A stretch of 63,218 nt of DNA, counting the filler, from Candidatus Sysuiplasma jiujiangense (GTDB taxonomy: Archaea; Thermoplasmatota; Thermoplasmata; Sysuiplasmatales; Sysuiplasmataceae): assembly GCA_019721075.1 (NCBI GenBank). It is 10 parts of 10 records of this genome, joined end to end, with 100 filler letters (N's around TTAATTAATTAA, not from the genome) between each part and the next. Parts side by side here need not be neighbours in the genome. Positions count along the whole stretch, not along the records: positions 14,881 to 21,971 come from JAHEAD010000035.1; 9 more parts are not named here. One strand, given 5' to 3'. Under the pieces are notes generated by a model. That model made no database searches. It saw nothing but the letters and a program-made list of their open reading frames with translations, and had not been told where the DNA came from. Position 1 is the stretch's first letter. Every line of letters starts with the position of its first letter. The translations under genes were made by a program, and so were the position numbers. Below are positions 9,155 to 40,106 of the stretch, one piece after another.

Positions 9155-9391
9155 GTTTCGTGGAACGGTAAAGAGATGCATGGAGATATTCGAAAACTAC
9201 TGCGTGGTTGCTGGTGCAGTGAGGTCCGGAATAGAGGTTGCCGTTGATGTCTCGATGCCGCAAAAATAGAGACCTCGGCGGGGATGAAATAAAGCAATAT
9301 TGCATTCTTGGCAGTGTGTTTTCCGCGCCAGGTGCCACATTTCCCGCATGAGTTTCAGCGCAGAAGGAAAGTTTCCTGTTGAGAGAATGTT

Positions 9392-10954: not shown

Positions 10955-11266
10955 ACCTTATCTCCCCCTTTCCCCCGGTTTGGCGATCTGCATTTCAGTT
11001 TAAATAACTAAGCATGATAAAAAATAACGTGCTTTTCATTGTTTAGAATGAAATGGTGAATAAAAGGCTCCAGAACAGAATTTCTGGAGCGCATTTCAGT
11101 GGCGAATAGGTGGCACCTTTCGGGGGCGCATATCGAAAGCATTGCACATCCGTGAAATGACGCCGACGTTTGCCTGTTGAATTGCACCTCCAGTTTACAG
11201 TGCCGGGAAATATGATCCGTGGAGGGCAGATATGGTCGTAGGCCTGGCTATTCAGCAGTAACCGCA

Positions 11267-12307
11267 CTAGCTTTTCTGGACTCCGAAGAAATTGATCCAT
11301 GTCAGCGCGTCTATTCCAGGAGCCAGCGACCAGGTGAAAGAAGACGGGTTGATCCACGAACGGTAATACAGGACTCCGACGCTCTGGTATATGCCCACCG
11401 CAAGGTCCAGTTCAGAATACAGGTAGCTTGACTCAAAGTAATACTGTGTTCTCTGTGTAGTGTTTGTCACGCCAAAAGCTGCCTCCGTGAAATTCCACAT
11501 TTCATGGATGAGTTTCCATTCGTGAGGATTCGTGGTTGTATTGAATCCTGTTCCCTGGAACAGGCCGTCAGGATAGGAATAGATGCCGTATGGAAGGGCA
11601 AACGGTCCTGCGAAATCAGAGGGATCGGCGTAATCGGCTACCCATCCGTCATAGTAAACCGGCAACGGATTCTGAGAAGAGGACACAGTGGTCAGCGTGG
11701 AGAGAGTCGAAGGATTGATATCCACCAGATAAGGCTGGACGACCCCCTGCGTTGCTGCCTCGATAGCAGGTATCCAGTAATCCGTGATCATTGCGTCCTG
11801 TACTGCGTTTCCTATTGAGTTGAATATCGGAAGAACTATTGAGTTCTTTCCGAGACCCGTGAAGGGGGTCGAGTTCCAGTATGACATCGCAAGTTTCATG
11901 TCGTAGTATGGCATCCACGGGTTTGAACTCAGGTTTGTTATATTGGAGGGATAGTCCTGGATGCCGGAAGGAATGTATCCTGCCTCATTTTTTGCGAATG
12001 TTATACCTGAAACGTTGTTCATTGAAAGGTATTCAGACTGATTGAATGCATAGGTCAAAGTCCTTCGCACGCTCAGATTGCCAAGGAATGTCGAAACCTG
12101 GTATCCGTTGACGCTGTAGATCGTCGAAGAGGGAAAAGAATTCTTGTAACCGAGGTCTGTAAGGCCCGTAACATTTAAGATCGGGAAAGCCGAGAGGAGC
12201 ATCATACTCGCCGCCTCCGGTAAGAATGAGAGCGACACAAAGACACGAAACGGCTGATTCTGGCGACCATCTGTAGAAAAGGAAGCGCTTGTCCTGAGTT
12301 GTTTCAA
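11267..12307 (-). pseudogene. C-terminal half of an ABC oligopeptide substrate-binding protein (family 5); N-terminus missing
   Basis: NLSVRRTLTYAFN, GWVADYADPSDF and QRTQYY match the OppA/DppA C-terminal region; no signal peptide or N-terminal half before dmpA. Confidence 0.6.
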
Positions 12308-12419
12308 CCCCCTGCAACGCTGGCCGGAATTACAGTAAATTTCCTGCTTTGCCGCTCAGGTAATTTTGCCATATTCCTCTGCGAACGCAGAAAACGTACG
12401 GTCCTCATCTTCCGCTCAT

Positions 12420-13511
12420 TCAGGCACTTTTGTTTAAAATTTTCAACACCCGGTCAACTGGAATTTCTGCCGAGACATGGCCGTCCCTGCCTTCAACTGT
12501 TGTCGAGCAGAACATGGAATCCAGAACCGATTCCTCAGTTGCTTCCACTGCAGCCTGGAAAAGCGTATTCATCTTTTCCTCCGATATTTCCCGGTATTCC
12601 CTTACATCTCTCCTCTCAGCTGCCGCGGAATATACAATTTTGTTTGAAGTGGAAAAGGCGACAGATATATCGCCGCTTCCGTTTGAGGCGAATGACCCCG
12701 TTCTCGCGATCCCGAGAAACGCTCTTCTTGAAAGACGCTTAAGCTGGCGTGAAGAAAGAGGAGCGTCCGTAGCCATCACAGTCACTATGGAACCGCCATC
12801 GCGTTTATGTGCACTGAGTCCTGAATCCAGACTGCTGCCTATGTTTCGTCCTGCAATGGTCAGCTGCCATCTGCTGCCGAAGTTTGAAAGGACAAGTACG
12901 CCCAGTGTCCATGTGTGCCCGGAAAAGCGGAGGACTCGGGAAGCAGAGCCGATGCCTCCCTTGAACTGAAAGGTTGTCGTACCGGTGCCTGCTCCAACGT
13001 TTCCCAGCTCGAACTTCTCGCAGGCCGCACTGATGGCCTCGCAAGCGTGTTCGGGTCGGACGTGCATACCTCTGGAATCGTTGAGGAAAGAGTCGTCGCA
13101 CTCTGAAACTACCGGAACAACAGTGCTTTCCGTAATGCCAGCCTGCGCATTTTTTTCCAGAACGTGGCTTATCAGCCCATTAGCCACATTGTGAACGCAC
13201 ATAGTGTTTGTCAAACCGATAGGTGTCTCAAGAGAGCCGAATTCATCCAATTCCAGCGCACCGGTAAGTTCTCCGCAGCCGTTGATCGTTGACCATGCGG
13301 CAGAAGGACGGTCCTTCCAGACATTCCCCTGATGCGGCATTATCACAGTAACGCCGGTTCTTACCGGCCCTCTGCCGGGGACGAGTTTGCCTTTGCCTGA
13401 AACAAGTGTCCTGTGACCCACGGTTACACCTCTCACGTCACTGATCCTGTTGAGAGGGCCGGTTCCGAGAGCGCCGATCACAATACCCAAATCCCTGATT
13501 CTCGTCCTCAT
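12420..13511 (-). CDS. dmpA: DmpA-family L-aminopeptidase/D-esterase (peptidase P1/S58)
   Basis: RIRDLG..GPLNRISDVRGVTVGH, RTGVTVI, PVVSECDDSFLND, GAGTG, KGGIGSASR, GGSIVTVMATDAPL, NGSGD. Confidence 0.92.
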   Translation of the reverse strand: MRTRIRDLGIVIGALGTGPLNRISDVRGVTVGHRTLVSGKGKLVPGRGPVRTGVTVIMPHQGNVWKDRPSAAWSTINGCGELTGALELDEFGSLETPIGLTNTMCVHNVANGLISHVLEKNAQAGITESTVVPVVSECDDSFLNDSRGMHVRPEHACEAISAACEKFELGNVGAGTGTTTFQFKGGIGSASRVLRFSGHTWTLGVLVLSNFGSRWQLTIAGRNIGSSLDSGLSAHKRDGGSIVTVMATDAPLSSRQLKRLSRRAFLGIARTGSFASNGSGDISVAFSTSNKIVYSAAAERRDVREYREISEEKMNTLFQAAVEATEESVLDSMFCSTTVEGRDGHVSAEIPVDRVLKILNKSA

Positions 13512-13944
13512 CTGAATCCATTTCCTTGTGTAATATAGTCTCACCGATTTAACAGCACCTTCCTGATGGGCTGAGGACTTGCGGCATCTTGCCTAAACCA
13601 TTCTGTATTGTCGATTTAGAAGGGCGTCGTTGCCGTTTCTCCTATTACAAAGACAAAGATTATCAGACTCAGAGACATTCAGACAACTTGGTTTCGACAG
13701 CCCGGGAAATGGCCTGAGCTGCCCTGCGTGAAGCGAAAAGGTTCTGTATGCCCCGCACGGATTCGTTTACGGTTGCTGGCCAGGCATTATTGCATACAAA
13801 ACGTTGCATGGGTTACGGGGCCGATCGTATTACTCGTATGTGACATCTTGTATGAAAAGTCATCAAATGCGCAATTCGTGTGAATATCGGCAACCAATGC
13901 CGTAGAATGCAGAATGCCGGTGCCTGCTGGCAATGAATATTGTA

Positions 13945-14739
13945 TCACATCCTGCCTGCACTGCCTGCTTTGTTCATGAATGCAATAATGCACATGTAAA
14001 GCAGGGAGAGTGAAGGGATGAGCACGATGGTGGTGAAACTCAGCCAGATTGGCCACCCTGTTAAATAAGGAATGCCTGCATAGCAGCAGGCCGGTCTTTC
14101 CGACCATACTGAGGGGTTGATAAACGGCCACTCAAGCAGCAGCACAAGAATTCCTGCCAGTACGGTCACAGACGCCAGGTAGAGAAGCGAGGCTGCATGG
14201 CCTCCCGGTAGTTGCACTCCCATCGCTGGAGATGAACCGGACCTCCTGTTAAAATTTCCCTTAGGCCTCACCTGCGCCATTACGAATATAAGGAGGGCGA
14301 CGGCAGTCAGCAGGAGAATTGAGATAAATCCAGGAATTGCTCCGGATGCGGCCTGATCGGACAGGAGCCACCATGTGGTATAGAAGTATGACAGGAATAC
14401 CATTAAAACAGCAAAACAGGCTGTCGAGACACGCACAACAGTTTCCAGGCGATTGATACCGCCAGATCGCTTGACCGCCCAGTTGAAGCCGATTACAGTA
14501 AAGACTGCGGTCAGGGCCGATAAAATCGCAATCGCGAAAAGCAGCCACTCGGTGATAAAACGGGTAACACCGAACGAGGGAAAGAAATCGTAGTTCAGAC
14601 CCTGTCCGCGGATCGGACAAAAACATACCCGTGGAGAGTAGGTTTGTATCGAGATCAGAAGGAACAGAGAGAGGAACAACGTTAGAAACGGTATCATCAC
14701 CGTCATCGCACGCGTCACCAGGTGCTGTGCCTTCGTCAT
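13945..14739 (-). CDS. Hypothetical multi-pass membrane protein
   Basis: 264 aa with ~6 hydrophobic segments and Cys pairs in loops. Confidence 0.65.
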   Translation of the reverse strand: MTKAQHLVTRAMTVMIPFLTLFLSLFLLISIQTYSPRVCFCPIRGQGLNYDFFPSFGVTRFITEWLLFAIAILSALTAVFTVIGFNWAVKRSGGINRLETVVRVSTACFAVLMVFLSYFYTTWWLLSDQAASGAIPGFISILLLTAVALLIFVMAQVRPKGNFNRRSGSSPAMGVQLPGGHAASLLYLASVTVLAGILVLLLEWPFINPSVWSERPACCYAGIPYLTGWPIWLSFTTIVLIPSLSLLYMCIIAFMNKAGSAGRM

Positions 14740-14978
14740 TACTTTCCATCCCCATCCGCCTTATCTTTTACATCAGTCCTNNNNNNNNNNNNNNNNNNNN
14801 NNNNNNNNNNNNNNNNNNNNNNNNTTAATTAATTAANNNNNNNNNNNNNNNNNNNNNNNNNNNNNNNNNNNNNNNNNNNNGTGATACAGCAGCCACAATT
14901 CTCAAGTACTATTCAAAGCCAAGCCCCGAGTTCATCCGGAAGACCATACAGGAGAAACAGATGTTTGAGGTGAAGTGA

Positions 14979-15212
14979 TTGCAGCTTCAGGATCAGGTCA
15001 AGCCATTCACTCACCAGATTGATAATGTCATCCTTGAGGCCATTCCACCCGGAAGGAAAATTTTCGGAAGGGCACTCGCCTATCAGCTGGATATTCCTTA
15101 CAAGGTGATCCGGTACCACATCAGGGAATGCCTCTCGATAGTGGTAGAAATTACGACCCCCCACATAAACTCTGACGGCAGATCATGGAACGTCATCATA
15201 TACCGCAGATGA
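14979..15212 (+). CDS. Small winged-helix DNA-binding protein
   Basis: 77 aa; ALAYQLDIPYKVIRYHIRE HTH-like segment and beta-wing; GAGGTGA RBS; stop lies inside the 107-bp repeat. Confidence 0.6.
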   Translation: MQLQDQVKPFTHQIDNVILEAIPPGRKIFGRALAYQLDIPYKVIRYHIRECLSIVVEITTPHINSDGRSWNVIIYRR

Positions 15213-15309
15213 ATGTATATATAACCACTTGAATATATCCATTCACAGTTTCTGGGGAGGCGAGCCATCGAGCCCCAGAAACTTGGATGGCTTCTTTCCC
15301 AGGAATTAG
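15203..15309 (+). repeat. 107-bp structured direct repeat, left copy (contig 3)
   Basis: CCGCAGATGAATGTATATAT...CCCAGGAATTAG; near-identical to 19727-19833, 35464-35562 and 40000-40106. Confidence 0.95.
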
Positions 15310-15337
15310 TAATACCGTAAAACAAAGGTGAACATAA

Positions 15338-15559
15338 ATGTATGACTCAATAACAGGGATACTCATAGTAGCAGGCATAATAGTCGTATTATTCGGTTAC
15401 AAGAAATTCCCGGATATTGTACGAAGTTTTGGAAGAGCAACAGGGGAGTTCCAAAAAGGCAAAATGGAAGCACAGAAGGAACTCGACGAAATAAAGAAAT
15501 CTGTTGCTGAGCCTGCAAATGATGTCAAGAACACAGCAGCAGAAATAAAGAAAGGGTAA
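15338..15559 (+). CDS. tatA: Twin-arginine translocase subunit TatA/TatE
   Basis: N-terminal TM, FG hinge (VLFGYKKFPDIVRSFGRATGEFQKG), amphipathic helix; GGTGA RBS. Confidence 0.93.
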   Translation: MYDSITGILIVAGIIVVLFGYKKFPDIVRSFGRATGEFQKGKMEAQKELDEIKKSVAEPANDVKNTAAEIKKG

Positions 15560-15564
15560 TGTAA

Positions 15565-16344
15565 ATGGGCGAAGGCATGCTCGATGAACTGCAACCGCAT
15601 ATCTCCGAGTTGTTTCAGAGACTGAAGCACATAGGCATAGCCTTCGTCATCGTTCTTTTAACTGTATTCATGTTCAATCCACTGAAACTGACATTCGGTC
15701 TCACAGGTTCATTCACCGTTTACGTGTTCAGGCTTATTTCAGAGAATATAGGCGGCGTGAAGATAATAACGATCTCACCTTTTGAGTCGCTTTTTACGGA
15801 TCTGTTTCTTGGAGTTGTGATATCAGTCATGATATTGCTTCCTTATATTCTCTATAATGTGTTTGCTTTCATCATTCCGGGAATGTCAAAAAGGGAGAAG
15901 CGGCTCCTCAAATTATCCCTTATTCCCGGAACCATCATGTTCATCGTTGGAATGTCGTTTGCATGGTATCTCCTGATACCTCTGATGTTCCATTTTACAG
16001 CAATCCTGGATCCGGCAATGGGCGTTGAACCAACCGTATCTGCACAGAAGCTGATTGGTCTCTTATTGACAATCATATTTTCTCTGGGTCTCGTGTTTGA
16101 GATGCCACTGATAATCTCTGCACTCGTTTATCTCGGCATAGTTGATGTTCAGTTCCTAAAGGCGAAATGGAGGTATGCGGTTGCAGGTTCATTCATAGCC
16201 GCATGGATCATATCACCGGGTGCGACTGGTGGTCTCATAGAAACTGCAATGGGATTGATATTTTCAGGCTTGTACTTTTCTGGTATATATCTCGGAAAGT
16301 TCATGGAAGTACGAAAAAGGAGTTATGTGTATGTGGAAGCATAA
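15565..16344 (+). CDS. tatC: Twin-arginine translocase subunit TatC
   Basis: 259 aa, 6 TM; HISELFQRL, SPFE, FIIPGMSKREKR, GLVFEMP, WRYAV..IAAWIISPG; directly follows tatA. Confidence 0.93.
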   Translation: MGEGMLDELQPHISELFQRLKHIGIAFVIVLLTVFMFNPLKLTFGLTGSFTVYVFRLISENIGGVKIITISPFESLFTDLFLGVVISVMILLPYILYNVFAFIIPGMSKREKRLLKLSLIPGTIMFIVGMSFAWYLLIPLMFHFTAILDPAMGVEPTVSAQKLIGLLLTIIFSLGLVFEMPLIISALVYLGIVDVQFLKAKWRYAVAGSFIAAWIISPGATGGLIETAMGLIFSGLYFSGIYLGKFMEVRKRSYVYVEA

Positions 16345-18100
16345 AGAATCGAAGTGGTTGGTACGTGGTGGTCGCAAGGTTAGATGTTATCTCTGTGGAA
16401 AGAAGATTCTCGCAAAGGGTGACCTGTTTCTTTTCCATCAAGACACAGGGTATTATTCGCACCAGTCCTGCATGACGGAAAGCACCACGCTAAGTGGAAA
16501 TGAAAGACGAAGGGCAGTCAAGAAGATAGCCGTTGGGGCTGCCGTTGTCGGTGCCATAGCTGCAGGTGCTGGGAAATTCATCGACATTTCCTCACAGTCG
16601 AAGGGATCAAATTCACCTGATACGCAGACCATACTGACCTCACAGGGGTTGATACTACCTGCACTTACATCCGATCCTGCGAATCCTGTTGCAGGTCAAA
16701 TGTGGTATCGATCAGATGCAGGTGTTACGGCGCATTATGATTCAATTCAGAATAGAGTTGTGTATTCATCTGAAATCAACAATGGCAATGTTAATGTTAC
16801 ATCTAAAGGAATTGTTAACGGTTTATCTGTATTGCCCAACGATGGCACTGGTGGTTTCGGGCCGGGTTCATTACAGGCAGACGGATCACTGACGCAGACA
16901 TCAGGGATACAGGAAGCTGTGAATTATATATATAATTCTGGCACTACTATTAATGGTAATGGTGGAAAATCACTGTTAACTGACGCAATTTATCTGGATG
17001 GTGATGTATTTGAGATAGATGCCCCAATTACAATCTCGGCTGCTCCGTCAGGTGTTTATGGGCCGAATCTGACAGTCAGAGGACGGGGAATACAGAATAC
17101 TATTCTAAACTTCAATTTTGATAACGAATGGGGAATTACTATATCTCCAGATAATTCATACGGTATGTTTTCTTTTGAGGGATTTTCTCCAAATGCAGGA
17201 GCAGGATACACGCCAAACGGTTGGCTAAATGCGGATTGGTCGGGGTCAAGCAATGCAGGACAAACAAACATGATATTAAAAGACATAAATGTTTACCCTG
17301 CAACATGGTCTGTAAATTCGATGGTGCTTAAGGCAATGGCATACGTTCTCCTGCTCAATGTATGGGATACGACAAAATCGTCTGACACTGGGCCAGTTCT
17401 TGCAAACGAACTAAATCAATGGATAGGTGGCGTGTCATATCAACCAATCAACTTGACAAATACGAGCATTGGCACATTTGTTACAGAATTAGATGGATTG
17501 CAGTCTTGCCCAGTCAGTGTAACTTATGGAACAGTCCTTTTAAGTGTTAGGAACTGCATGGGATTTGTTTTTACGATAGGAGCAGCAACAATGACAAATC
17601 TGTATCTGGAAAATGTAGAATATGGAACATTGTCAGGGTCAGCCTTAATCAGTGCATCATCTGCTTCAACCATTAACATGATAACCATAAAAGGGTTATT
17701 CACAAGCACAACACAGACCAAATCATTGTTAGATACCACGAATTTAACTGTTTTAAAACTATCCGCTGAAGGTGTAAATCCATCATCCGGCACACTGACG
17801 CTTCCATCTGTTTCCATATCTGCAAATCCACCTGTAAGTGGAACAGTTTATCAAAATACCAATCCATATGACATAGAAATAGACCTGCCAGTATATGCAA
17901 CAACATCTGGAACAGCAGGATACGTTACGATAGCAAAGGGTTCAACAGATACGCCAACTGCAATAAGCAACCAGTATGTGAGTGGAGATACATCTTCAAC
18001 ATCAACACAGATAATCAGGTTAAGAGTTCCAGCAGGATGGTATTATTCATTCACAGGATCAGGTGTAACATTTGCAACAGCTACGCCATTTGCAGAGTGA
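16325..18100 (+). CDS. Twin-arginine signal protein: Zn finger, RR-TM, fibre-like neck, predicted beta-helix (tailspike/pectate-lyase-like), C-terminal tip
   Basis: CYLC..HQSC; ERRRAVKKIAVGAAVVGAIAAG; SDPANPVAGQMWYRSD; TSGIQEAVN..IYLDGDVFEIDAPITI..LTVRGRGIQNTIL resembles a beta-helix cap; overlaps the tatC stop. Confidence 0.8.
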   Translation: MCMWKHKESKWLVRGGRKVRCYLCGKKILAKGDLFLFHQDTGYYSHQSCMTESTTLSGNERRRAVKKIAVGAAVVGAIAAGAGKFIDISSQSKGSNSPDTQTILTSQGLILPALTSDPANPVAGQMWYRSDAGVTAHYDSIQNRVVYSSEINNGNVNVTSKGIVNGLSVLPNDGTGGFGPGSLQADGSLTQTSGIQEAVNYIYNSGTTINGNGGKSLLTDAIYLDGDVFEIDAPITISAAPSGVYGPNLTVRGRGIQNTILNFNFDNEWGITISPDNSYGMFSFEGFSPNAGAGYTPNGWLNADWSGSSNAGQTNMILKDINVYPATWSVNSMVLKAMAYVLLLNVWDTTKSSDTGPVLANELNQWIGGVSYQPINLTNTSIGTFVTELDGLQSCPVSVTYGTVLLSVRNCMGFVFTIGAATMTNLYLENVEYGTLSGSALISASSASTINMITIKGLFTSTTQTKSLLDTTNLTVLKLSAEGVNPSSGTLTLPSVSISANPPVSGTVYQNTNPYDIEIDLPVYATTSGTAGYVTIAKGSTDTPTAISNQYVSGDTSSTSTQIIRLRVPAGWYYSFTGSGVTFATATPFAE

Positions 18101-18105
18101 TTGAA

Positions 18106-18624
18106 ATGAAAATTAAATGTCCTGTAGCACTGTGTGAATGGGAAGGCAAAACCCATCAATTTCATAAACATATCGAGGAATACAAAATCACATGGAAAAA
18201 TGTCATGGACAGTGGATTTCCGAGATCAGAATCACATGAAAGATGGGCAAACTATTTCTTCAAAGAAATCTGGAATGATCCAAATCTGCCTGAAAAAGTA
18301 AAATGGACAAACATTGCAGTTGCCTACGTGAATCAGATCAAGAATCAAAGCAAGATGGCACAGCACAAGGGAAAGTTATCCCCTGATGGTTCCGACAAAA
18401 TAGAGATGCATGATGGCAAGGTATTCATGAATGGGCAGGAATACTCACCTGATGAATTCTCAAAGATAATGCCCGGAATCAAGGTTCCACAGGGGCAGAA
18501 GCCACCGTTTGAGACCGTCAAGGACATTTCAGGTGATTTGAGGATCACGCATGAAGGAAAAGATTACACAATTGAAGAGTTCAGGAAGCTGCAGCGAGAG
18601 AAATTGGAGATGCTGAAAAAATGA
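18106..18624 (+). CDS. C2H2 zinc-finger-like cytoplasmic protein
   Basis: Start moved to ATG 18106 (MKIKCPVALC..HQFHKH) after GAGTGA; conserved in the second copy. Confidence 0.75.
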   Translation: MKIKCPVALCEWEGKTHQFHKHIEEYKITWKNVMDSGFPRSESHERWANYFFKEIWNDPNLPEKVKWTNIAVAYVNQIKNQSKMAQHKGKLSPDGSDKIEMHDGKVFMNGQEYSPDEFSKIMPGIKVPQGQKPPFETVKDISGDLRITHEGKDYTIEEFRKLQREKLEMLKK

Positions 18625-19736
18625 AGATGAGGCTGCTTGTGGTTCCGATACTTTTCCTTCTGTTTGTGGGAATGATTGCGGTACCGCAAGCGAATGCCTC
18701 AACGCCTCCTTCGGTGCATTTTGATTCGAGTCCGATCACTACATGGTACAACGAGACACCTTATGAATATCCAGCATCAATATCGGCACCGTATAACTGG
18801 ACTCTCAAGACGAATGCATCCCTGCACATGACAGGTGGCAATACGGTGAATGACACGGCAGCACAGACCGTGTTTGGCATTCTTTCAACAGGCAGCTACT
18901 GGGTCAATCTTTCGATTACTTATCACAATGCCACCAACGTAACCACATTGCTGACCTACCAGAATTTCACGTTGACAATCCTCAACAAGCCTTACATATA
19001 TTCAACTCCCGAAACCTTCTTCTATCAGGATTCCACCTATAACTACACCTATGAGATCAATCAGGGAAACATCACCAACTATTCTTCCGGATTCACGTTG
19101 AACAAGACTGCCCATACGCTGTCTGAGTATCTGTCTGGAACCTCATATTCTTTCTTTATTACGGTTTCAGATAAGAATGGAACATATACACAATACTGGG
19201 GGGCCAGCACGAACAGTACATACAGTTATTCTTTCACCGCAAATCTTAGTGGAACCGCAGTAAGTGTCAAATCGATGATCACAGATATTGGGGTAAACAA
19301 CACGAGCCTTCTTATGGATTCAGGTCCGGTCCTATCCGTTCCCCGCACCTCCTATTCATACTCGTTCGTTATCATGAGCCCAACAGTGTATTCTATCTCG
19401 ACATCCTCCGCACTTGCGCCTAATGTTACTCTTTCTTTCAATCTTCTGGCACCCGGGTCTTATAATGTCTTCATGATCAGCAATGTGTCTGGAACAACCA
19501 TAGTGCTCAACAACGTCAGCTCTACAGGGACAGTCAACATAACCTACGATCCGGCCACGATGCCACTGGACCCTGTATTCGAGGTTTCGCCTTCCATCGC
19601 TGCGCCTCCTCCATACCAACCTGTGCAGCCCAATCCTCCAATGAATTTCTTCCCCGCGTATGTCTTCTATATCCTCCTTGCAGCGTCGGCAGCAGGTGTG
19701 GCTGTCGGTATATACATCATGATTCGCCGCAGATGA
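18621..19736 (+). CDS. Sec-exported, C-terminally anchored surface glycoprotein
   Basis: Signal peptide ending ANA; S/T/Y/N-rich with many sequons; Pro-rich linker; TM followed by RRR; stop lies inside the repeat. Confidence 0.85.
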   Translation: MKMRLLVVPILFLLFVGMIAVPQANASTPPSVHFDSSPITTWYNETPYEYPASISAPYNWTLKTNASLHMTGGNTVNDTAAQTVFGILSTGSYWVNLSITYHNATNVTTLLTYQNFTLTILNKPYIYSTPETFFYQDSTYNYTYEINQGNITNYSSGFTLNKTAHTLSEYLSGTSYSFFITVSDKNGTYTQYWGASTNSTYSYSFTANLSGTAVSVKSMITDIGVNNTSLLMDSGPVLSVPRTSYSYSFVIMSPTVYSISTSSALAPNVTLSFNLLAPGSYNVFMISNVSGTTIVLNNVSSTGTVNITYDPATMPLDPVFEVSPSIAAPPPYQPVQPNPPMNFFPAYVFYILLAASAAGVAVGIYIMIRRR

Positions 19737-19833
19737 ATGTATATATAACCCATTGAATATATCCATTCACAGTTTCTGGGGAAGTGAGCTATCGAGCCCC
19801 AGAAACTTGGATGGCTTCTTTCCCAGGAATTAG
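19727..19833 (+). repeat. 107-bp structured direct repeat, right copy (contig 3)
   Basis: Differs from 15203-15309 at only a few positions, in the spacer and hairpin loop. Confidence 0.95.
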
Positions 19834-19852
19834 GAAAAATGGAGGGATAATC

Positions 19853-19925
19853 TCTCAAGGAATCGGCTTTCTGATGTTACATTCCAGTGGCTCGGACAGG
19901 CGATCTCCCTGTTGGATTCCTGAGA
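19853..19925 (+). promoter_or_regulatory. Predicted branched structured leader ending 2 nt before the ATG of the 387-aa gene (also 40126-40198)
   Basis: TCTCA(A)GGAATC pairs with GATTCCTGAGA and encloses GACAGG/CCTGTT; conserved in both copies. Confidence 0.45.
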
Positions 19926-19926
19926 C

Positions 19927-21090
19927 ATGAAAACAAACACAAGACTTTGGGTAATAATAATAGGCTTGCTTATTGTCTTCGCAGGTGCATTTGGTATCCT
20001 CGTCATTGGCGGGGAAGCTGCGCAGGCAAAAAGCAACGGCGGTTTGAACGTAGTAAAGGACTATAACGTTGGAAATGAGGTATCCGAGATTTGGGGCCTT
20101 AATACGACAGCGCACACATGGAAGCAGGCGACCCTTACGGGAGCAGGAACAGACGCCATAACGGCGACATTCCCCGTGAAGTTCACGGTCGACCGGGTCA
20201 TAATAATGACCGACAACTCATCGCAATCCGTGTATGATCTCTTGGTGAAGAGTGCGTATTATGAGTACACCGACCTGACAAGTTCCGGCGGAAAGATAAC
20301 GAACCTGTACCAGTATTTCGGCCAGTATGTCAACGACTCCGGCACGACCTCGATAAGCGACAAGGGCATAACAGGATATGCGTTGAACTTCTCGCTCTAC
20401 GGTCCGAGCACGGATCTCTTTGGCCATAACCCGGCTGTCAACCTTCTACAACTATTCGCATCTCCATGGTCCGGAACGGCACAGTACCAGCTGGAAGTCA
20501 ACTCATCCGTGAATGCAACAACGGCATTCAGCTTCACCTTCACCCAGTACTTCGAGTCATCAGTGAGCTTCAACCTCGTGGATCTCGTCAGCTATTTCAT
20601 GCTTGCCTTCCTCCTGCTGGGAACGCTCTTCCTGTGGTACGCCACGCCTGAGCACTACGGCGATGAGGAAGAAAGATCAGCAGCGAAGCAGGCCCGGAAC
20701 GAGCTTCCGCTTGCAATCATAATCGGTGCGGTAGGCCTGTTCATCTTCGCGGTCGTCGGTGAGATGGGAAACATATCTCCGCTCTTCGGCTATGGCGGTG
20801 CAACGATGGGCCTGCTCGTTGGAGGATTGCTCACATTCGCGTACACTGCAGTCGCCACAAGGCAGAAATACCACTATACGGCGTTCGTATTCCTGGTTGG
20901 CGAGGCTCTGGGCATACTCCTTAACATACTGGTGCCTGATGGAACAATCTACGCGAACTATGCCGCATCGGCGAACGTCCTTGGATCTCTCCTTGGATGG
21001 TACGTTGTGGTATTCGCGCTCTTCCTGACCGTCATCGGCGTGCTGAACACGAAGAGGTACAAGCTGCGTCCAAGAGAGCACAGGGAGTGA
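19927..21090 (+). CDS. Multi-pass membrane protein with ectodomain (TM-ectodomain-TM-4TM), putative major envelope protein
   Basis: 387 aa; near-identical to 40200-41363; same architecture and motifs as 51560-52729. Confidence 0.85.
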   Translation: MKTNTRLWVIIIGLLIVFAGAFGILVIGGEAAQAKSNGGLNVVKDYNVGNEVSEIWGLNTTAHTWKQATLTGAGTDAITATFPVKFTVDRVIIMTDNSSQSVYDLLVKSAYYEYTDLTSSGGKITNLYQYFGQYVNDSGTTSISDKGITGYALNFSLYGPSTDLFGHNPAVNLLQLFASPWSGTAQYQLEVNSSVNATTAFSFTFTQYFESSVSFNLVDLVSYFMLAFLLLGTLFLWYATPEHYGDEEERSAAKQARNELPLAIIIGAVGLFIFAVVGEMGNISPLFGYGGATMGLLVGGLLTFAYTAVATRQKYHYTAFVFLVGEALGILLNILVPDGTIYANYAASANVLGSLLGWYVVVFALFLTVIGVLNTKRYKLRPREHRE

Positions 21091-21095
21091 TCTGA

Positions 21096-21413
21096 TTGGC
21101 AGATGAGGAAGAGGAAGTATCTTCTGGCTTCGAGCTGACGACAGACGAGATTTTCATTCTCGTAGCCGTCGTGCTTGCGGCAGCTGTCTTCCTCGCCTTA
21201 TATCTGGACCAGCAGGCAGTTGCGGGAATCGGTGTCGGGATCGTCTCGGGTTTCGCATCCCCTATCACCGCGTTCTTCAACGGCATAGCGCAGGCAATAT
21301 CCGCGTTCTTCAACTGGATAAGCCATGCGCTGTCGAGCCTGTGGGTCCTGAAGGCCCGGTTGTATATGACCGTGCTTTCAACCAAAAAAATTTATCTTTT
21401 TGTCATGAGGTGA
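21096..21413 (+). CDS. Small membrane protein (acidic N-terminus, TM, amphipathic helix), putative virion protein
   Basis: TTG start after GGAGTGA; GIGVGIVSGF resembles GTIGLGFISAV in 50804-51184. Confidence 0.75.
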   Translation: MADEEEEVSSGFELTTDEIFILVAVVLAAAVFLALYLDQQAVAGIGVGIVSGFASPITAFFNGIAQAISAFFNWISHALSSLWVLKARLYMTVLSTKKIYLFVMR

Positions 21414-21417
21414 AAAT

Positions 21418-21705
21418 ATTTTAGCACCTAAGCCAAAGGGTTCTTCCGTTGCGGCGGAACTCATTCTTTATATTATCCTTGCAGTCATCATTATCGCAAT
21501 CGTATATGCCATCGTCTTTGACTCGTCGGCACTCGGCCCGGTTGGCATTGGAGTCGCAGGATCCTTCGGCTCGATATTCTCGTCATTTGCCAATGGCATC
21601 TCGACCGTGATAGAAGGCATTGTCCATGCAATCGTCAATGCTATAACGGGCGCCCTGAGTTCAACCGGCTCTTACCTTTACAAGCACACGATAGGAGCGC
21701 TCTGA
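21418..21705 (+). CDS. Small membrane protein paralogous to 21096-21413; no canonical start (absent from ORF track)
   Basis: Open frame (I)LAPKPKGSSVAAELILYIILAVIIIAIVYAIVFDSSALGPVGIGVAGSFGSIF...HTIGAL*; GAGGTGA RBS at 21407-21413; TGATG overlap with the next gene. Confidence 0.75.
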   Translation: MLAPKPKGSSVAAELILYIILAVIIIAIVYAIVFDSSALGPVGIGVAGSFGSIFSSFANGISTVIEGIVHAIVNAITGALSSTGSYLYKHTIGAL

Positions 21706-21932
21706 TGCGCCCGATATCATTCCTCATAGGCCTCTTCCTTCTCCTCTTCATCGGCTATGAGCTGCTCACGGGAAACAGGATTCAGGAGATCATGTTTCTC
21801 GCTGTCGCAGGAAATTTCATATCGGCAGGCTACTTCAAGGTGAGCACCACCTATACGATCCTCTTCTTCGTTCTGCTCATTTTCGCAACGTTTTCTCTCC
21901 TCTACGGACTCGGATCAAGTGATGAAAAGTGA
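21705..21932 (+). CDS. Small two-TM protein
   Basis: 75 aa; aligns by eye with 50569-50799. Confidence 0.75.
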   Translation: MRPISFLIGLFLLLFIGYELLTGNRIQEIMFLAVAGNFISAGYFKVSTTYTILFFVLLIFATFSLLYGLGSSDEK

Positions 21933-22072
21933 AGAAGTCTGAGCACCGTGAGGAGGAACGCAGGCGGGCCANNNNNNNNNNNNNNNNNNNNNNNNNNNNN
22001 NNNNNNNNNNNNNNNTTAATTAATTAANNNNNNNNNNNNNNNNNNNNNNNNNNNNNNNNNNNNNNNNNNNNG

Positions 22073-23134
22073 ATAACGGAACAGGCCATAAACAGCACGA
22101 ACCATGGCATAATCCTGAACCCCATCAGCCAGCCGGGGAATTTGATACCGGGGCAGAATGCAACATGGCTTCTGGATCCGGAATTCAGGAACGGAACTCT
22201 CCTGACGCCATCGCAGATACAGAATTCAACCTTCCAGTTCATCATAACAAATTCATCGGGTTTCTTCCTGCCAGAAATCATCAACCACACAGTGGATCAG
22301 GGATACCTCAGGGTTACATTTTTGCCAACAGTCAACGGGTCGATGACGTTCGCCATGAAGGAAACGTTCGGCAACAACTCAGGGTCCTATTCTTATCAGG
22401 TAAATGTTATCCCGATCACACCAGTTTCGGTAGGCCTCCAGGAAAGTGTCAGCGTTCCATCAGTAATCCAGGTCAATAATGCCACCGTCGGGACCATCAC
22501 GTTCTCGCTCATTTCCGGTGGGTCTGTGGGTCTTGCGCCGACGTCCTCCCAGACGGATGCCCTGATAGCCAATACGTCGGTGGAGCTCCTGTACCATGGA
22601 TCATTCGCCGCAGTCATACTGCCGTACTATGACGGGGCGGGAGTGGCGGCATTCTCCGTGAATATCTCCTCAGTGGGAACCGGATACTCGATCCTGGTCA
22701 TAACCCATTCCACCAATATCTCGGGGCAGGCAGTCCGCTTCACAGGTACATCCCAGGAATTCACTGTCTCCACACAGTCGCCGTCAAACCCGCCCCAGCC
22801 CATAACGAGCCTGAGCATCGAGAAATTCCTCACCAGCCCTGCGGCAATCGCCCTGGAATTCATTGCCACCATCATAGGCCTCCTGGCATGGCTCGTCCCC
22901 AAGGCGGACGCAAAGAAGGAGAAGGAGAAGGAGGACCTGAACCAGGCTGAGATAGTGGTTGAGGGCGGCATCGCACTGAAGATCCTGGGCGGCATTCCCC
23001 TCTCGACGCCCGAACAGGCATGGTGGAATGCAATTCCTGAGGATACCCGGAAAGGCTTGATGAGGGAGGGGACGGCAGGCAAGAGGACCCTGTTCCCCAA
23101 ACCAAAGATAAAGGCAGAAAAGAAGGTTGATTGA
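22073..23134 (+). CDS. C-terminal part of a large membrane-anchored surface protein (5' truncated)
   Basis: Frame open from the contig start; beta-rich and sequon-rich; TM followed by a charged cytoplasmic tail. Confidence 0.8.
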   Translation: MTEQAINSTNHGIILNPISQPGNLIPGQNATWLLDPEFRNGTLLTPSQIQNSTFQFIITNSSGFFLPEIINHTVDQGYLRVTFLPTVNGSMTFAMKETFGNNSGSYSYQVNVIPITPVSVGLQESVSVPSVIQVNNATVGTITFSLISGGSVGLAPTSSQTDALIANTSVELLYHGSFAAVILPYYDGAGVAAFSVNISSVGTGYSILVITHSTNISGQAVRFTGTSQEFTVSTQSPSNPPQPITSLSIEKFLTSPAAIALEFIATIIGLLAWLVPKADAKKEKEKEDLNQAEIVVEGGIALKILGGIPLSTPEQAWWNAIPEDTRKGLMREGTAGKRTLFPKPKIKAEKKVD

Positions 23135-23806
23135 ATGAGAAAAAGCATGAAAATATTTGGATTGGCCATTGTGATAGCATTCGTGTCGGCCGCAGCTGCG
23201 GCAATGACGGCTCATACGGGAGTGGAGACGGGACCGGCAGCAGTCCAGGCAATGCCTGATGTGGCAGGGAACCTGACTAACGGTACGGACCCGGCATACT
23301 CGGAGATAAACATGTACATCTTCGCCGAGGATCCGGGCCTGCAGCTGTACATCACTGCGGAGCCCGGAGTGGTGGCGCCCATGCTCACGACCTTTTCCGC
23401 GACGCTGCATGCCCCCGGGAACAGTTCATGGTATGTCACGGACAGCGCCCTCAACGGGGGAAGCACCGTGCTCGACAGCGGGACATTCTCATACGTCACG
23501 ACGATCACGCTCCAGGGCACGAACTCCGGAGTTGCCAACTTTACTTTCCACATCACCTCCGGATCCCTTGGCCATGCCATGGCATTCTCATACCTCCTGG
23601 AGTTCATGTCTCCCACCACGTATATCAGCTACGAGCACCAGAAGACCGTGGCTCCGGGGGAGCTGACGTATGGGCAGGGAGGTGAGATAGCCGCGGGAGG
23701 CATAGTTCTGGGCCTTGGCCTCCTGAGGCTCTTCCTGCCGGTGATGCGCAGGAAGATACAGAAGGACAACAAGAAAGAGGGGATGGTGCTGCTTGCCTCA
23801 AACTGA
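23135..23806 (+). CDS. Signal peptide, ectodomain and C-terminal TM protein
   Basis: 223 aa; homologous to 49921-50568 (LEFMSPTTYISY vs IQVVTLTQYINY before the TM and basic tail). Confidence 0.8.
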   Translation: MRKSMKIFGLAIVIAFVSAAAAAMTAHTGVETGPAAVQAMPDVAGNLTNGTDPAYSEINMYIFAEDPGLQLYITAEPGVVAPMLTTFSATLHAPGNSSWYVTDSALNGGSTVLDSGTFSYVTTITLQGTNSGVANFTFHITSGSLGHAMAFSYLLEFMSPTTYISYEHQKTVAPGELTYGQGGEIAAGGIVLGLGLLRLFLPVMRRKIQKDNKKEGMVLLASN

Positions 23807-25016
23807 GGACGAGAAGAACGAGCAGATGAACCCGGACGAGGGAGGGCCTTTCCGCCTGGGAAAGCTCATAGGCACAAATAAAAGGGAAGTCACGCCGGAT
23901 GCCACCAAGCTCACGATAGTCAACATTGAGGACACAGCCGGATACGGCGCAAGATTCAGGGACTGGTTCCTGCGGAACAACGGGCCGGCGACCCTTCTCA
24001 TAATGCTGGTCGTGATCATATCCTACGTCGTCCCCTCAGAGTATTTTCCCCAGGCGACGGAGCTGGTGTTCGGGATGGTCCTCATGGCCATAGTGCTCGC
24101 CCTCATCTCCGCATACGAATATGAGAGGAGGCAGGACAGGCACCACAACATCTTCGTGGACCAGATCAGGATCAAGCTGAAGGAGACGGTTGTGGCAAGG
24201 GAGAAGACCAAGGAGGGTGGCGTGGAGACCAAGGTGATAGTCCCCAAGATCACGGAACGGAGGATCTACCTGGCGAAGGACTACATGTTCGAGGGAAAGA
24301 AAGGCGACCCGTACAGGATAGAGAAGTACAACTGCCAGATTGTGGGGGAGTTCGGGAAGATCATCGACGTTTCATACGTGGACGAGACCGGAAGGATACT
24401 GATCGGAGAAGGGGAAGGCGACATCCCCTCAGGCCTCATAGTCAAGATAGCATACCCGTCAAGGACGGAGCTGTCAGAGGAAGTGAAGAAGGCCGAGAAG
24501 CTCAGGAAGGAGGGCGGCATCCCGGAGAAGGAGTTCCTTGAGTTCAAGGGGGCGGTGGACCAGTACAACCTGTGGAGGGATCAGGTCATAGAGAAGGCCA
24601 CCAAGCATGGGATCTCCATGATTGACATCGATGCGATGAACAGGAAGCAGAGATCATTCTTCGTTGCCCTTGCGAAGGACTCCGTCAGCTACTGGCGGGG
24701 AGAGGCGCAGGACCCGGTTTCGCTCCAGGAGTACAAACAAATGGATCCGTCCATCCTGATGCCGAAGCTCCTCAATATCATCAGGGATCAAAACGACTAC
24801 AGGGCAGACAAGCTGGACTACATGATCAACAGGGAATCCGATAAGATAGAGGCAGAGATCGGGGCCACGTTCAACATCGCAAGGATGGATGGCCGCAGCA
24901 AGGAGGCGGTTGAGCAGTTCCTGGTTGAGCAGAGAAAGGCCCTCGTGTCAGTCCAGAGCAAGACCGAAAAGGAAATGGAGGAAGAGGTAAATGGCCGAGG
25001 AGAAGACACAGAATAA
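23793..25016 (+). CDS. Two-TM protein with large charged cytoplasmic domain
   Basis: 407 aa; same position and architecture as 48706-49878. Confidence 0.8.
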   Translation: MPQTEDEKNEQMNPDEGGPFRLGKLIGTNKREVTPDATKLTIVNIEDTAGYGARFRDWFLRNNGPATLLIMLVVIISYVVPSEYFPQATELVFGMVLMAIVLALISAYEYERRQDRHHNIFVDQIRIKLKETVVAREKTKEGGVETKVIVPKITERRIYLAKDYMFEGKKGDPYRIEKYNCQIVGEFGKIIDVSYVDETGRILIGEGEGDIPSGLIVKIAYPSRTELSEEVKKAEKLRKEGGIPEKEFLEFKGAVDQYNLWRDQVIEKATKHGISMIDIDAMNRKQRSFFVALAKDSVSYWRGEAQDPVSLQEYKQMDPSILMPKLLNIIRDQNDYRADKLDYMINRESDKIEAEIGATFNIARMDGRSKEAVEQFLVEQRKALVSVQSKTEKEMEEEVNGRGEDTE

Positions 25017-25437
25017 GGCACCCCCGTCACTGGTCCCCGAGGTGAAGAGGAAGATCATGGCCATCCTGGTTGGATCGGGCATGGATCCCGCTTTGGTGGA
25101 TATCATAAGCGTCATGGACCCATTCAAGATCCAGCTGTTCATAGGCCTGTACCAGGCATACTCGAGCATGCCTGACTACGTCCGGAAGAGGGCAGAGGAG
25201 ATCCTCAACATTGACATGGCCGATCCGCACATCAAGAAGCTCCTTGAGGATGATGTCAACAGGGGAGCGTGGGACAGGGAAAAATACCTGGACTGGGCAT
25301 CCGGATTCTACCGGAAGGTTCTGGTCATGAGGTTCGTTAAGACTGCAATGCATGAGTACATGAACACCCTCGCATCCTCCCAGGAGAGGGCGAGTTTAAT
25401 CCTGACCACTCAGCCGGATAAGGTGAGGATAGCATGA
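24991..25437 (+). CDS. Hypothetical protein
   Basis: 148 aa; GAGGT RBS; overlaps both neighbours. Confidence 0.7.
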   Translation: MAEEKTQNKAPPSLVPEVKRKIMAILVGSGMDPALVDIISVMDPFKIQLFIGLYQAYSSMPDYVRKRAEEILNIDMADPHIKKLLEDDVNRGAWDREKYLDWASGFYRKVLVMRFVKTAMHEYMNTLASSQERASLILTTQPDKVRIA

Positions 25438-27347: not shown

Positions 27348-27352
27348 CCGGA

Positions 27353-27388
27353 TTACATGCATTACACATGTTACACATATTACATGGC
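27353..27388. repeat. Four tandem 9-bp units starting TTACA
   Basis: TTACATGCA TTACACATG TTACACATA TTACATGGC, immediately after the recombinase stop. Confidence 0.75.
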
Positions 27389-35463: not shown

Positions 35464-35562
35464 GAATGTATATATAACCACTTGAATATATCCATTCACA
35501 GTTTCTGGGGAGGCGAGCCATCGAGCCCCAGAAACTTGGATGGCTTCTTTCCCAGGAATTAG
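35464..35562 (+). repeat. 107-bp direct repeat, left copy (first 8 nt cut by the contig start)
   Basis: Identical to 15211-15309. Confidence 0.95.
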
Positions 35563-35812: not shown

Positions 35813-35817
35813 TATAA

Positions 35818-38897: not shown

Positions 38898-40009
38898 GGA
38901 TGAGGCTGCTTGTGGTTCCGATGCTTTTCCTTTTACTGATGGGAATGATTGTAGTACCGCAAGCGAATGCCTCGACACCTCCTTCTGTGCATTTCAACAG
39001 CAGTCCGATCACTACATGGTATAACCAGACTCCGTATGAGTATGCGGCATCCATATCGGAACCGTATAACTGGACTCTCAAGACAAACGCATCCATGCAC
39101 ATGTCAGGTGGCAATACGGTGAATGATACGAAAGCACAGACCGTGTTTGGCATCCTTTCAACAGGTAGCTACTGGGTCAATCTTTCTATCTCATACCATA
39201 ATGCTACCAATGTAACCACATTGCTGATCTACCAGAATTTCACGTTGACAATCCTCAATAAGCCCTACATATATTCCACACCTGAAACCTTCTTCTATCA
39301 GGATTCTACCTATAACTACACCTATGAGATCAACCAGGGGAACATCACCAACTATTCTTCAGGATTCACGTTGAACAAGACTGCACATACGCTGTCTGAA
39401 TATCTATCTGGAACTTCGTATTCTTTCTTTATCACCGTATCGGATAAGAACGGAACATATACACAATACTGGGGGGCCAGCACGAACAGTACATACAGTT
39501 ATTCTTTCACCGCAAATCTTAGTGGAACCGTAGTAAGTGTCAAATCGATGATCACAGATATTGGGGTAAACAACACAAGCCTTCTTATGGATTCATATTC
39601 GGTCCTGTCGGTCCCTCGTACCTCCTATTCATACTCGTTCGTTATCATGAGCCCAACAGTGTATTCTATCTCGACTTCCTCCGCACTTGCACCTAATGTT
39701 ACCCTTTCTTTCAACCTTCTGGCCCCCGGGTCTTATAACGTCTTCATGATCAGCAATGTGTCTGGAACAACCATAGTGCTCAACAACGTCAGCTCTACAG
39801 GGACAGTCAACATAACCTACGATCCTGCCACCATGCCGCTGGACCCTGTATTCGAGGTTTCGCCTTCCATCGCTCCGCCTCCTCCATACCACCCTGTGCA
39901 GCCCACTCCTCCGATGAATTTCTTCCCCGCCTATGTCTTCTATATCCTCCTTGCAACGTCGGCATCTGGTGTTGCTGCCGGTGTATACATCATGATTCGC
40001 CGCAGATGA
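38894..40009 (+). CDS. Sec-exported, C-terminally anchored surface glycoprotein, allele 2
   Basis: 371 aa, colinear with 18621-19736. Confidence 0.85.
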   Translation: MRMRLLVVPMLFLLLMGMIVVPQANASTPPSVHFNSSPITTWYNQTPYEYAASISEPYNWTLKTNASMHMSGGNTVNDTKAQTVFGILSTGSYWVNLSISYHNATNVTTLLIYQNFTLTILNKPYIYSTPETFFYQDSTYNYTYEINQGNITNYSSGFTLNKTAHTLSEYLSGTSYSFFITVSDKNGTYTQYWGASTNSTYSYSFTANLSGTVVSVKSMITDIGVNNTSLLMDSYSVLSVPRTSYSYSFVIMSPTVYSISTSSALAPNVTLSFNLLAPGSYNVFMISNVSGTTIVLNNVSSTGTVNITYDPATMPLDPVFEVSPSIAPPPPYHPVQPTPPMNFFPAYVFYILLATSASGVAAGVYIMIRRR

Positions 40010-40106
40010 ATGTATATATAACCCCTTGAATATATCCATTCACAGTTTCTGGGGAAGCGAGCCATCGAGCCCCAGAAACTTGGATGGCTTCTTTCCCAGG
40101 AATTAG
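40000..40106 (+). repeat. 107-bp direct repeat, right copy (contig 6)
   Basis: Near-identical to the other three copies. Confidence 0.95.

Follow-up and report, generated by a model that had tools for sequence, protein, structure and literature searches.

Within the 63-kb window analysed here (the whole stretch of 63,218 nt, taken from the metagenome-assembled genome (MAG) of Candidatus Sysuiplasma jiujiangense, GCA_019721075.1), a 107-nt direct repeat brackets a 4.5-kb block of genes that includes those of a Tat translocase. The repeat is probably a duplicated promoter and leader cassette of a virus- or plasmid-like circular element of about 23 kb, which would double as homology for recombination. 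Each copy would supply, in order, the last arginine codon and the stop codon of the upstream gene and then a TATA-type promoter lying in a 13-10-13 palindrome. The palindrome would be the operator of a dimeric DNA-binding protein, for which the winged-helix protein encoded just upstream is the candidate, and about 27-30 nt past the promoter, at the expected transcription start, a stem-loop with two foldings would begin. Two adjacent envelope/membrane operons, namely the accessory module between the repeats and the core module starting from the 387-aa gene, would thereby be placed under the same control, and the left cassette together with the shared C-terminal anchor and cassette on the right would provide the homology for recombination that swaps, deletes and re-inserts the module. 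Observed directly are the structure and copy number of the repeat, the alternative cargo, the relatives without cargo, the covarying hairpin and the reticulate nucleotide differences among copies; an active promoter, the point at which transcription begins, binding at the operator and recombination that still goes on were inferred from the sequence. A wider joint reading is put forward only tentatively and is, taken whole, rather doubtful: a portable archaeal cassette resembling the PeSL elements of T4-type phages would express any gene placed after it and also be the point of crossover at which host-recognition modules are swapped, with a new bistable, covarying leader and a complete private Tat system (TatA and TatC) moving together with a tailspike-like protein between chromosomes and the virus-like element. 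If it were true, promoter/stem-loop repeats as recombination points would not be peculiar to T4-type phages, and an archaeal mobile element would swap its surface or host-recognition genes likewise.

Anatomy of the repeat

The ten stretches of the window are each one contig of a MAG with 55 contigs and 2.29 Mb (C27-C29, C31-C33 and C35-C38, placed end to end), separated by linkers of the form N44-TTAATTAATTAA-N44 at 7565-7664, 14781-14880, 21972-22071, 28840-28939, 35364-35463, 41652-41751, 47384-47483, 52851-52950 and 58090-58189. Features which seem to be repeated across the window therefore sit on different contigs. The two pairs of repeats lie on contig C29 (window 14881-21971) and contig C33 (window 35464-41651). 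An earlier reading made from the sequence alone (the sequence-only reading) had treated them as alleles on one molecule, and this had to be given up, as they are separate contigs of one MAG. The practical warning is that "alleles" in windows of this kind are co-assembled strain variants on separate contigs.

A repeat search of the window returned one family of four copies, at 15190-15312 (reference), 19714-19836 (91%), 39987-40109 (93%) and 35443-35565 (82%, a value lowered by Ns), with spacings of 4524 and 4544. The copies proper, all on the plus strand, are copy a of C29 at 15203..15309 (annotated as a putative composite control element), copy b of C29 at 19727..19833, copy a of C33 at 35464..35562 (C33:1-102) and copy b of C33 at 40000..40106. 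The coordinates and the 4524 spacing of the sequence-only reading were thus reproduced, as were its statements on the stop codons and the inverted repeat that are detailed below. Its copy at 35464 is a real copy as well, which is short because C33 begins within the repeat. Copies a and b of C29 differ in 5 columns over a 105-column core. Searching the 2.29-Mb genome with nhmmer gave seven full-length matches with E-values of 6e-35 to 2e-30, whereas the next match had an E-value of at least 0.27; the repeat is therefore far beyond chance. Two full copies each were found in C29, C33 and C43 and one in C14, and none elsewhere in the MAG. Upstream of its 980-aa gene, C14 has only a fragment of 25-40 nt, consisting of the stop codon, part of the TATA box and the spacer. 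The seven full repeats all lie within four variants of the ~23-kb circular virus/plasmid-like element, in which the order is throughout a small recombinase gene, a winged-helix gene of 65-77 aa, repeat, cargo, repeat, the 387-aa gene and the remaining core module.

All seven copies begin at the AGA-TGA of the upstream gene. Both full copies of C29 start with CCGCAGATGA and so give the terminal arginine codon and stop to two genes, whose products end in ..IIYRR* (14979-15212) and ..IMIRRR* (18621-19736). At the other end the copies stop 13-93 nt short of the next start codon, the distance being 29 nt to tatA, 13-19 nt to the 1061-aa gene of C43 and 93 nt to the 387-aa gene; a GGTGA is present 8 nt before the ATG of tatA. 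The palindrome (15210..15245, no strand), which was read directly, consists of the arms TGAATGTATATAT (15210-15222) and ATATATCCATTCA (15233-15245), complementary at 12 of 13 positions, around a 10-nt spacer with 3 variable positions among the seven copies, and is a candidate operator. Its half-site, with up to 2 mismatches allowed, had 97 matches genome-wide (46-62 in shuffles), and no further paired site was found in the element contigs, so there is no sign of a wider regulon. A T.AATGTATACAT motif similar to the palindrome arm is clustered on another contig (C20 11640-11822), where its five copies, distributed over both strands, are possibly iterons or an array of operators belonging to a different element.

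The TATA-like box TATATATAA (15216-15224) follows the stop codon within the palindrome, and the stem-loop begins 27-30 nt later, which puts the box of C29 at -32..-24 relative to the base of the stem-loop. For comparison, more distant relatives of the locus were collected from the same MAG (C44), from a contig of a Thermoplasmata MAG (L009) and from a provirus in a complete genome (G335). In all five lineages examined (C29-type, C14, C44, L009 and G335) an AT-rich, TATA-like box is found at -35..-24, counted from the base at which pairing of the hairpin begins, and similar AT boxes occur upstream of host tRNA genes. These facts suggest that the repeat carries a putative promoter of the host type (archaeal TATA, not sigma-70).

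The stem-loop (15247..15307, plus strand) is bistable in prediction, with its first segment pairing either with the second or with the third. Segments 1 (15247-15257) and 2 (15273-15283) form a perfect 11-bp hairpin, and segment 1 with segment 3 (15286-15307) an alternative hairpin of about 22 bp with G-U pairs. When the 107-nt element (copy a) was folded as RNA, the plus strand gave -38.8 kcal/mol and a z score of -5.34, and the minus strand a z score of -2.20. For the short hairpin, 98.7% of 77 alignment cells were paired and 6 of 11 pairs had changed on both sides; this covariation was reached by none of 500 shuffles, and slid controls gave 21-68%. The 11-bp hairpin is preserved via double changes in C44 and L009. 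The longer hairpin is the minimum-energy fold in C29, C14, C44 and L009 (z -3.4 to -4.7) and is strand-specific, the minus strand not forming it. Compared with a perfect complement of segment 1, segment 3 of C29 has 5 substitutions, all of them C>T or A>G, and G-U pairs are therefore kept. A covariance model of the hairpin, run on 190,097 bases of related loci, detected no extra copies at E < 0.01 other than antisense overlaps. The Rfam 15 scan of C29 returned nothing at the repeats and a lone sub-threshold match elsewhere (sR41, 18.5 bits against 54), and the hairpin pattern GTTTCTGGGG..CCCCAGAAACTTGG had 0 matches in viral_contigs and 0 in metagenome_contigs. The b copies, and these only, are followed by an extra leader of the 387-aa gene (19834..19926, plus strand), which is conserved and partly covarying in C14, C44 and L009. 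This delimits a small, testable RNA element of about 60 nt, with two predicted alternative folds and covariation in four lineages, which would lead the envelope operons of a group of uncultured viruses.

The module between the repeats

The cargo of C29 consists of five genes on the plus strand. The first is tatA (15338..15559, 73 aa; PF02416, E 6.6e-11, 41.7 bits against a cut-off of 21), whose product is 55% identical over 44 aa to the TatA of the host. It is followed by tatC (15565..16344, 259 aa; PF00902, E 7.6e-42, 143.9 bits against a cut-off of 25.1), whose product shares 35% identity over 185 aa with the TatC that the host itself encodes on C4, and 46% over 229 aa with the second of the TatC proteins in G112, a genome from a different Thermoplasmata family. 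The third gene (16325..18100) encodes a 591-aa protein with an N-terminal CxxC..HxxC region, an RR-x-AVKK motif, a hydrophobic stretch, a variable body predicted as beta-helix and a beta-sandwich end. The 195-aa protein encoded next (18037..18624) has no counterpart between the 591-like and 371-like genes of G112, and the last, a 371-aa protein (18621..19736, its last Arg codon and stop lying in copy b), carries a signal peptide, is rich in N-x-S/T sequons, ends in a membrane anchor and is 33% identical over 357 aa to its neighbour in G112. The cargo of C33 (35591..40009, plus strand) is laid out in the same way, with tatA at 35591-35812, tatC at 35818-36597 and genes for proteins of 597 aa (36578-38371), 187 aa (38334-38897) and 371 aa (38894-40009).

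The 591-aa protein is a candidate for the Tat substrate of the module. Its RR motif lies about 60 residues from the N-terminus, behind the Cys/His region, and N59, R61, R62, A64, V65, K66 and K67, followed by the hydrophobic stretch, are invariant in 14 aligned relatives. The family has 114 members, in which the first ~200 aa are nearly invariant and the body is highly variable. In contigs of other sequencing runs, the stretch 16860-17817 of the gene is replaced by ~995 unrelated letters, a similar length, with many of the joints clustering at 16917-16927 and 17817-17855; the body domain in the middle of the protein is hypervariable, flanked by an N-terminal third and C-terminal ends that are conserved. 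An AlphaFold2 model (mean pLDDT 64.7) was beta-rich at residues 220-590, and Foldseek gave 10 matches with E <= 0.001, all of them chains of phage tailspikes or depolymerases (prob 0.96-1.00) with TM values of just 0.19-0.33; the protein is tentatively called tailspike-like. The alignment of the family had just 2 weak, motif-only loci in viral_contigs, and a 591-like gene was found in 2 of 400 sampled genomes of the same class. Another contig of the MAG, C24 (10.9 kb, 37.8% GC), holds a gene with similarity to the 591-aa protein in the body and the C-terminal part (E 6.7e-39); the two ends of the contig are inverted copies of each other, and it is possibly a linear element. No virus-encoded Tat system was found described in the literature searched, and that of the present element would, by those searches, be the first. 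With a secretion system and its candidate substrate travelling as one module, a virus-like element could bring its own export route for a folded spike.

Other cargo was found at the same place in close variants of the element. In C43 a single gene for a 1061-aa glycoprotein lies between the same repeats, with the same winged-helix gene before it (94% DNA identity) and the same 387 leader after it, and the cargo of C14 is a related gene, for the 980-aa protein. Over their last ~137 residues the proteins of 371, 980 and 1061 aa have 49-54% identity, so the three cargo types share a membrane-anchor end. On the reverse strand of C14 (7935-8035), the 980-aa gene was seen to have no in-frame ATG near its signal peptide, and a 7-codon open reading frame (ORF; MKSEIME) immediately precedes it in a different frame, possibly because of a frameshift. 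A small winged-helix-type gene directly abuts the leader and the 387-like gene, with no cargo, in all three readable distant relatives (C44, L009 and the G335 provirus). This count leaves out C36, which starts 106 nt before its 387-like gene, and C25, and the three relatives are too distant to place junctions. In the chromosome of G112 (locus L037 8527-13015, its second TatC locus), tatA, tatC, a 591-like gene (729 aa) and a 371-like gene (430 aa) stand together among ordinary and housekeeping genes, and no long flanking repeats were found there. The Tat module may be a cellular surface-protein export unit captured by the element, or the reverse. Because of the alternative cargo, the cargo-free relatives and the unit in G112, the block is considered an accessory module gained and exchanged as a unit; by sequence comparison it appears to be a gain relative to the more distant relatives, in at least three forms in one population.

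The block also differs from its surroundings in composition and divergence. The GC content of its interior is 0.37-0.53 per 150 nt, against 0.51-0.57 for 19981-21330. Between C29 and C33, identity is 52-96% in the interior and 91-99% in the downstream gene; along the block it falls from 99% at copy a to 52-62% in the middle and returns to 93-96% near copy b. Between C29 and C43, homology ends at the right end of copy a and resumes ~170 nt before copy b. At two variable sites of the repeat, each of the four possible combinations is represented when a and b copies are taken together (reticulate single-nucleotide polymorphisms, SNPs). The patterns of identity and homology and the reticulate SNPs fit homologous exchange or gene conversion via the repeat and the shared anchor end, and do not demonstrate exchange. 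A tandem array with both cargo types in one molecule was ruled out, as each cargo type has the winged-helix gene before it and the 387 leader after it.

Several proposals of the sequence-only reading can be judged from these comparisons. It had described the interior as more AT-rich and more diverged than the downstream gene, which agrees with the values above. It had also supposed an insertable or excisable module; that the block is accessory and was gained and exchanged as a unit is borne out by C43, C14, the cargo-free relatives and G112, but the right edge is not at the repeat. The relatives with alternative cargo and with an empty site that it envisaged both exist (C43; C44, L009 and G335), and deletion of the block would recreate the arrangement seen in the latter three. 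As an alternative it had named a mere duplicated promoter or leader; the repeat does have the anatomy of a promoter and leader, but relatives with alternative cargo and without cargo exist.

Known systems and alternative explanations

PeSL repeats of T4-type phages are reported to run from the upstream stop codon through a promoter and then a stem-loop, to stop short of the start of the following gene, to cluster at variable genes, to mediate replacements and to form mini-circles (Arbiol et al. 2010, PMC2839356; Comeau et al. 2014, PMC4122927). By this description the PeSL cassette is the closest match in working principle. The present repeat also begins at the upstream stop, has a putative promoter of the host type and a stable stem-loop, and ends before the ribosome-binding site or start codon; it also brackets non-core, variable genes, and recombination between its two copies would give a circle with one copy and the cargo. 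The likeness in boundaries is partial, since the left C29/C43 boundary is at the end of copy a and the right one is in a gene, 170-400 nt before copy b. In contrast to the PeSL accounts, the putative promoter here is of the archaeal TATA type and not sigma-70, the stem-loop follows the promoter, shows covariation and can apparently adopt a second fold, the variable block has one of its edges within a gene, and the cargo includes a Tat translocase. Each ~23-kb genome, moreover, has just two copies (C14 one full copy), as against ~50 in the hyperplastic regions of T4-type phages.

Promoter-bearing intergenic repeats are also known from an archaeal virus. Passages on the 77-kb tailed halovirus HF2 report near-identical intergenic repeats of 29-58 bp with a TATA box and transcription start, which were tested as promoters, with two class II copies driving late morphogenesis genes (Russ, Pfeiffer & Dyall-Smith 2021, PMC8707807). 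The word "stem-loop" has 0 occurrences in the HF2 text, and its passages on the repeats do not describe them as flanking a swappable module (PMC8707807). With the integron the present element shares a recombinase gene beside a slot for varied cargo between repeated, hairpin-forming sites. Integron cassettes (attI/attC, IntI) are mostly promoterless and share one promoter, whereas each unit here brings its own putative promoter, the repeat length varies and one boundary is inside a gene.

In one alternative explanation the repeats are att-, lox- or integron-like sites and the 4.5-kb block is excised or inserted as a circle by a recombinase of the element, the candidates being the 221-aa tyrosine recombinase upstream of the winged-helix gene and the serine recombinase on the related contig C31. 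We regard it as quite unlikely. In C14, in L009 and in C51, which is joined to C29 and C43, the neighbour of the winged-helix gene is the small tyrosine recombinase gene, serine recombinases occur in related elements (the 222-aa ORF of the G335 provirus; C31), and direct repeats flank alternative cargo while cargo-free relatives exist; yet L009, with the same recombinase/winged-helix pair, has no cargo. Conserved arms around a variable spacer recall the core site layout of tyrosine recombinases. However, these enzymes need matching overlap regions, and the spacer differs between copies of one molecule (CAC vs CAT in C29); at 10 nt it is also longer than the 6-8 nt spacers of tyrosine-recombinase sites. 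The duplicated length is 107 nt in C29, C33 and C43 and ~25-40 nt upstream in C14, so there is no fixed att-like site, and the right limit of variation falls within a gene. Two active direct sites should delete the block readily, yet the block was assembled at high depth (rough figures). The recombinases which the sequence-only reading had proposed for trial on the repeat pair are on other contigs (C31 and C37), the nearest one being the 221-aa tyrosine recombinase upstream of the winged-helix gene, and the contig of the enzyme at 52951-53720 has no similarity to the C14 element in tblastx at E <= 1e-10. That the repeat pairs are an assembly artefact, made by mis-joined contigs of co-assembled strains, is extremely improbable. 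The MAG has many short contigs ending in or near the repeat, and C33 starts inside it, but C29, C33 (copy b) and C43 carry internal copies with unique flanks, the copies differ by SNPs, both cargo types have the winged-helix gene before and the 387 leader after them, and contigs from 4 runs of 3 studies cover all 30 bins of C29.

Two further explanations concern what the repeat does. It may be a joint of terminator and promoter, in which the palindrome and the GC hairpin form or stabilise the 3' end of the upstream RNA and the AATTAG-rich right end is the real promoter, giving leaderless or short-leader mRNAs. This is unlikely, though the least so of the alternatives. A pyrimidine-rich run follows the stem-loops (GGCTTCTTTCCC in C29, TTTTCGCTGTTCT in L009, CTTTCTCG in C44), but C29-type copies have no run of at least 5 T directly after the hairpin. 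AATTAGTAATA lies ~26-34 nt before the ATG of tatA, but a much stronger TATA-like box keeps a constant distance of 27-30 nt to the hairpin that follows it in 5 of 5 lineages, the GGTGA in front of tatA suggests a leader, and 387-like genes retain a long conserved leader past the hairpin. The plain hairpin of G335 begins 7 nt past the stop codon, which suits a terminator, and the PeSL stem-loops are described as terminators (PMC2839356). Alternatively, segments 1, 2 and 3 might be three binding sites in DNA, one forward and two reverse, which co-evolve with their protein and form no RNA structure. A DNA palindrome would look like the short hairpin, which is all Watson-Crick in every lineage, and lineage-specific changes strike all three segments together. 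Against this, the changes of C29 segment 3 relative to segment 2 keep G-U pairing with segment 1 in 5 of 5 cases and L009 has 6-7 G-U pairs, the long fold is strand-specific, and the loop motif GCCNTCRAG is conserved between the arms, where a DNA-site model does not need it. This explanation is thus very unlikely.

The duplicated promoter and leader cassette remains the preferred explanation, and several points weigh against it. The right limit of cargo variation lies ~170-400 nt inside the last cargo gene and not at the repeat, the upstream copy of C14 is partial and holds the promoter part only, and there are just two copies per genome and no dispersed family. The promoter, the site at which transcription starts and the placing of the hairpin at the 5' end rest on inference, and the stem-loops with the pyrimidine-rich run could instead, or also, end upstream transcripts. 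The hairpin is carried by effectively four independent lineages, G335 having a different, simple one. For the long hairpin, 84.4% of 154 cells of the MAFFT alignment were paired and 4 of 22 pairs had changed on both sides; these values were reached by 5 and 28 of 500 shuffles, and a +1 slide still gave 64.8%. MAFFT places the 3' arm of C44 and L009 wrongly. The long alternative fold is graded as likely, and no higher, because its alignment support is modest. Finally, the similarity of the winged-helix proteins is marginal, BLASTP being significant only among C29/C43/C14 and for C44-G335 (5e-4), so their equivalence across lineages depends mainly on position and predicted fold.

The carrier element and other contigs

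The ends of C14 are identical over 99 nt, and it is therefore a circle of ~23 kb. Its products include two tyrosine integrases (406 and 221 aa), a 1595-aa protein, several small membrane proteins, a protein of the fusellovirus VP2 family (PF25632, E 3.7e-17) and an ATPase matching a protein of Pyrococcus abyssi virus 1 (23% identity, E 3e-7); a major capsid protein was not recognised among them. From its genes C14 appears to be a member of an undescribed virus or plasmid group of acid-mine Thermoplasmata. In its circular form, VP2-family protein, two integrases and Pyrococcus abyssi virus 1-like ATPase it resembles spindle-shaped and pleomorphic archaeal viruses and plasmids, from which it differs in lacking a recognised major capsid protein. 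Close variants of this element are represented by fragments, contigs C29, C33, C43, C49 and C51, which are joined via contig-end overlaps. C31 (window 22072-28839), which carries a serine recombinase, has 10 tblastx segments in common with C14 and therefore belongs to a related element. In the G335 provirus, the 222-aa serine-recombinase-like ORF follows the ATPase.

C29 opens with the 3' end of the tyrosine recombinase gene (14883..14981, plus strand; ~32 codons and the stop), the remainder of which is on C51. In tblastx, C29 3-101 matched C14 15529-15431 with 67% over 33 aa, and C51 61-600 matched C14 15434-15973 with 73% over 180 aa; the 221-aa protein of C14 matches PF00589 (E 6.3e-11). 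The gene of the 77-aa winged-helix protein follows (14979..15212, plus strand), with its last Arg codon and TGA within copy a. This protein has no Pfam match. Its AlphaFold2 model (mean pLDDT 77.1) has an H-E-H-H-E-E topology, and in Foldseek it best matched winged-helix regulators from archaea and of the MarR/PadR type (3r0a_A, TMq 0.70, prob 1.00, E 1e-2).

The 387-aa gene (19927..21090 in C29 and 40200..41363 in C33, plus strand) is the first of the core module and encodes a predicted multi-pass membrane protein of a family of 12 proteins. The core synteny common to C14 and the G335 provirus is the 387-like gene, small transmembrane proteins, a giant protein, proteins of ~200 and ~400 aa and the ATPase. 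No match to the 387-aa family was found in the phage and plasmid collections searched. A search for its locus gave 1 irrelevant weak locus in viral_contigs (34% over 42 aa), 167 pattern stretches in metagenome_contigs, none of them a relative, and 1 locus in genome_contigs, which is L009. A 387-like gene was present in none of 9 other genomes of the same order and in 1 of 400 sampled genomes of the same class (G335).

Parts of C29 are contained in 20 sequencing runs from 7 studies of mine drainage, tailings and sediment. The run data examined were Logan contigs of 4 runs, which are built from short words and are unable to bridge or phase the 107-nt repeat. Among the 15 joints listed, out of 31, none leads from 15309 directly to 19833, a negative that for this reason has no bearing on excision, circles or empty sites. 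In run X1 the summed contig word depth over window 14881-21971 was ~9,000-26,000, a rough figure that gives no copy number; by this rough depth, at least one mine-drainage sample is extremely rich in the element.

Three observations were made on other contigs of the MAG. A CRISPR array with a 36-nt repeat and 16 repeats lies at C1 ~10890-12070, and for its 16 spacers no match of at least 20 nt was found on a contig outside the array, the element contigs included. C35 starts (window 41752-41976) with three tandem units of 75 nt, two identical and the third 60% identical, which probably encode a repeated peptide. C41, a contig of 4335 nt with a 91-nt terminal overlap, is probably a small circular plasmid or virus.

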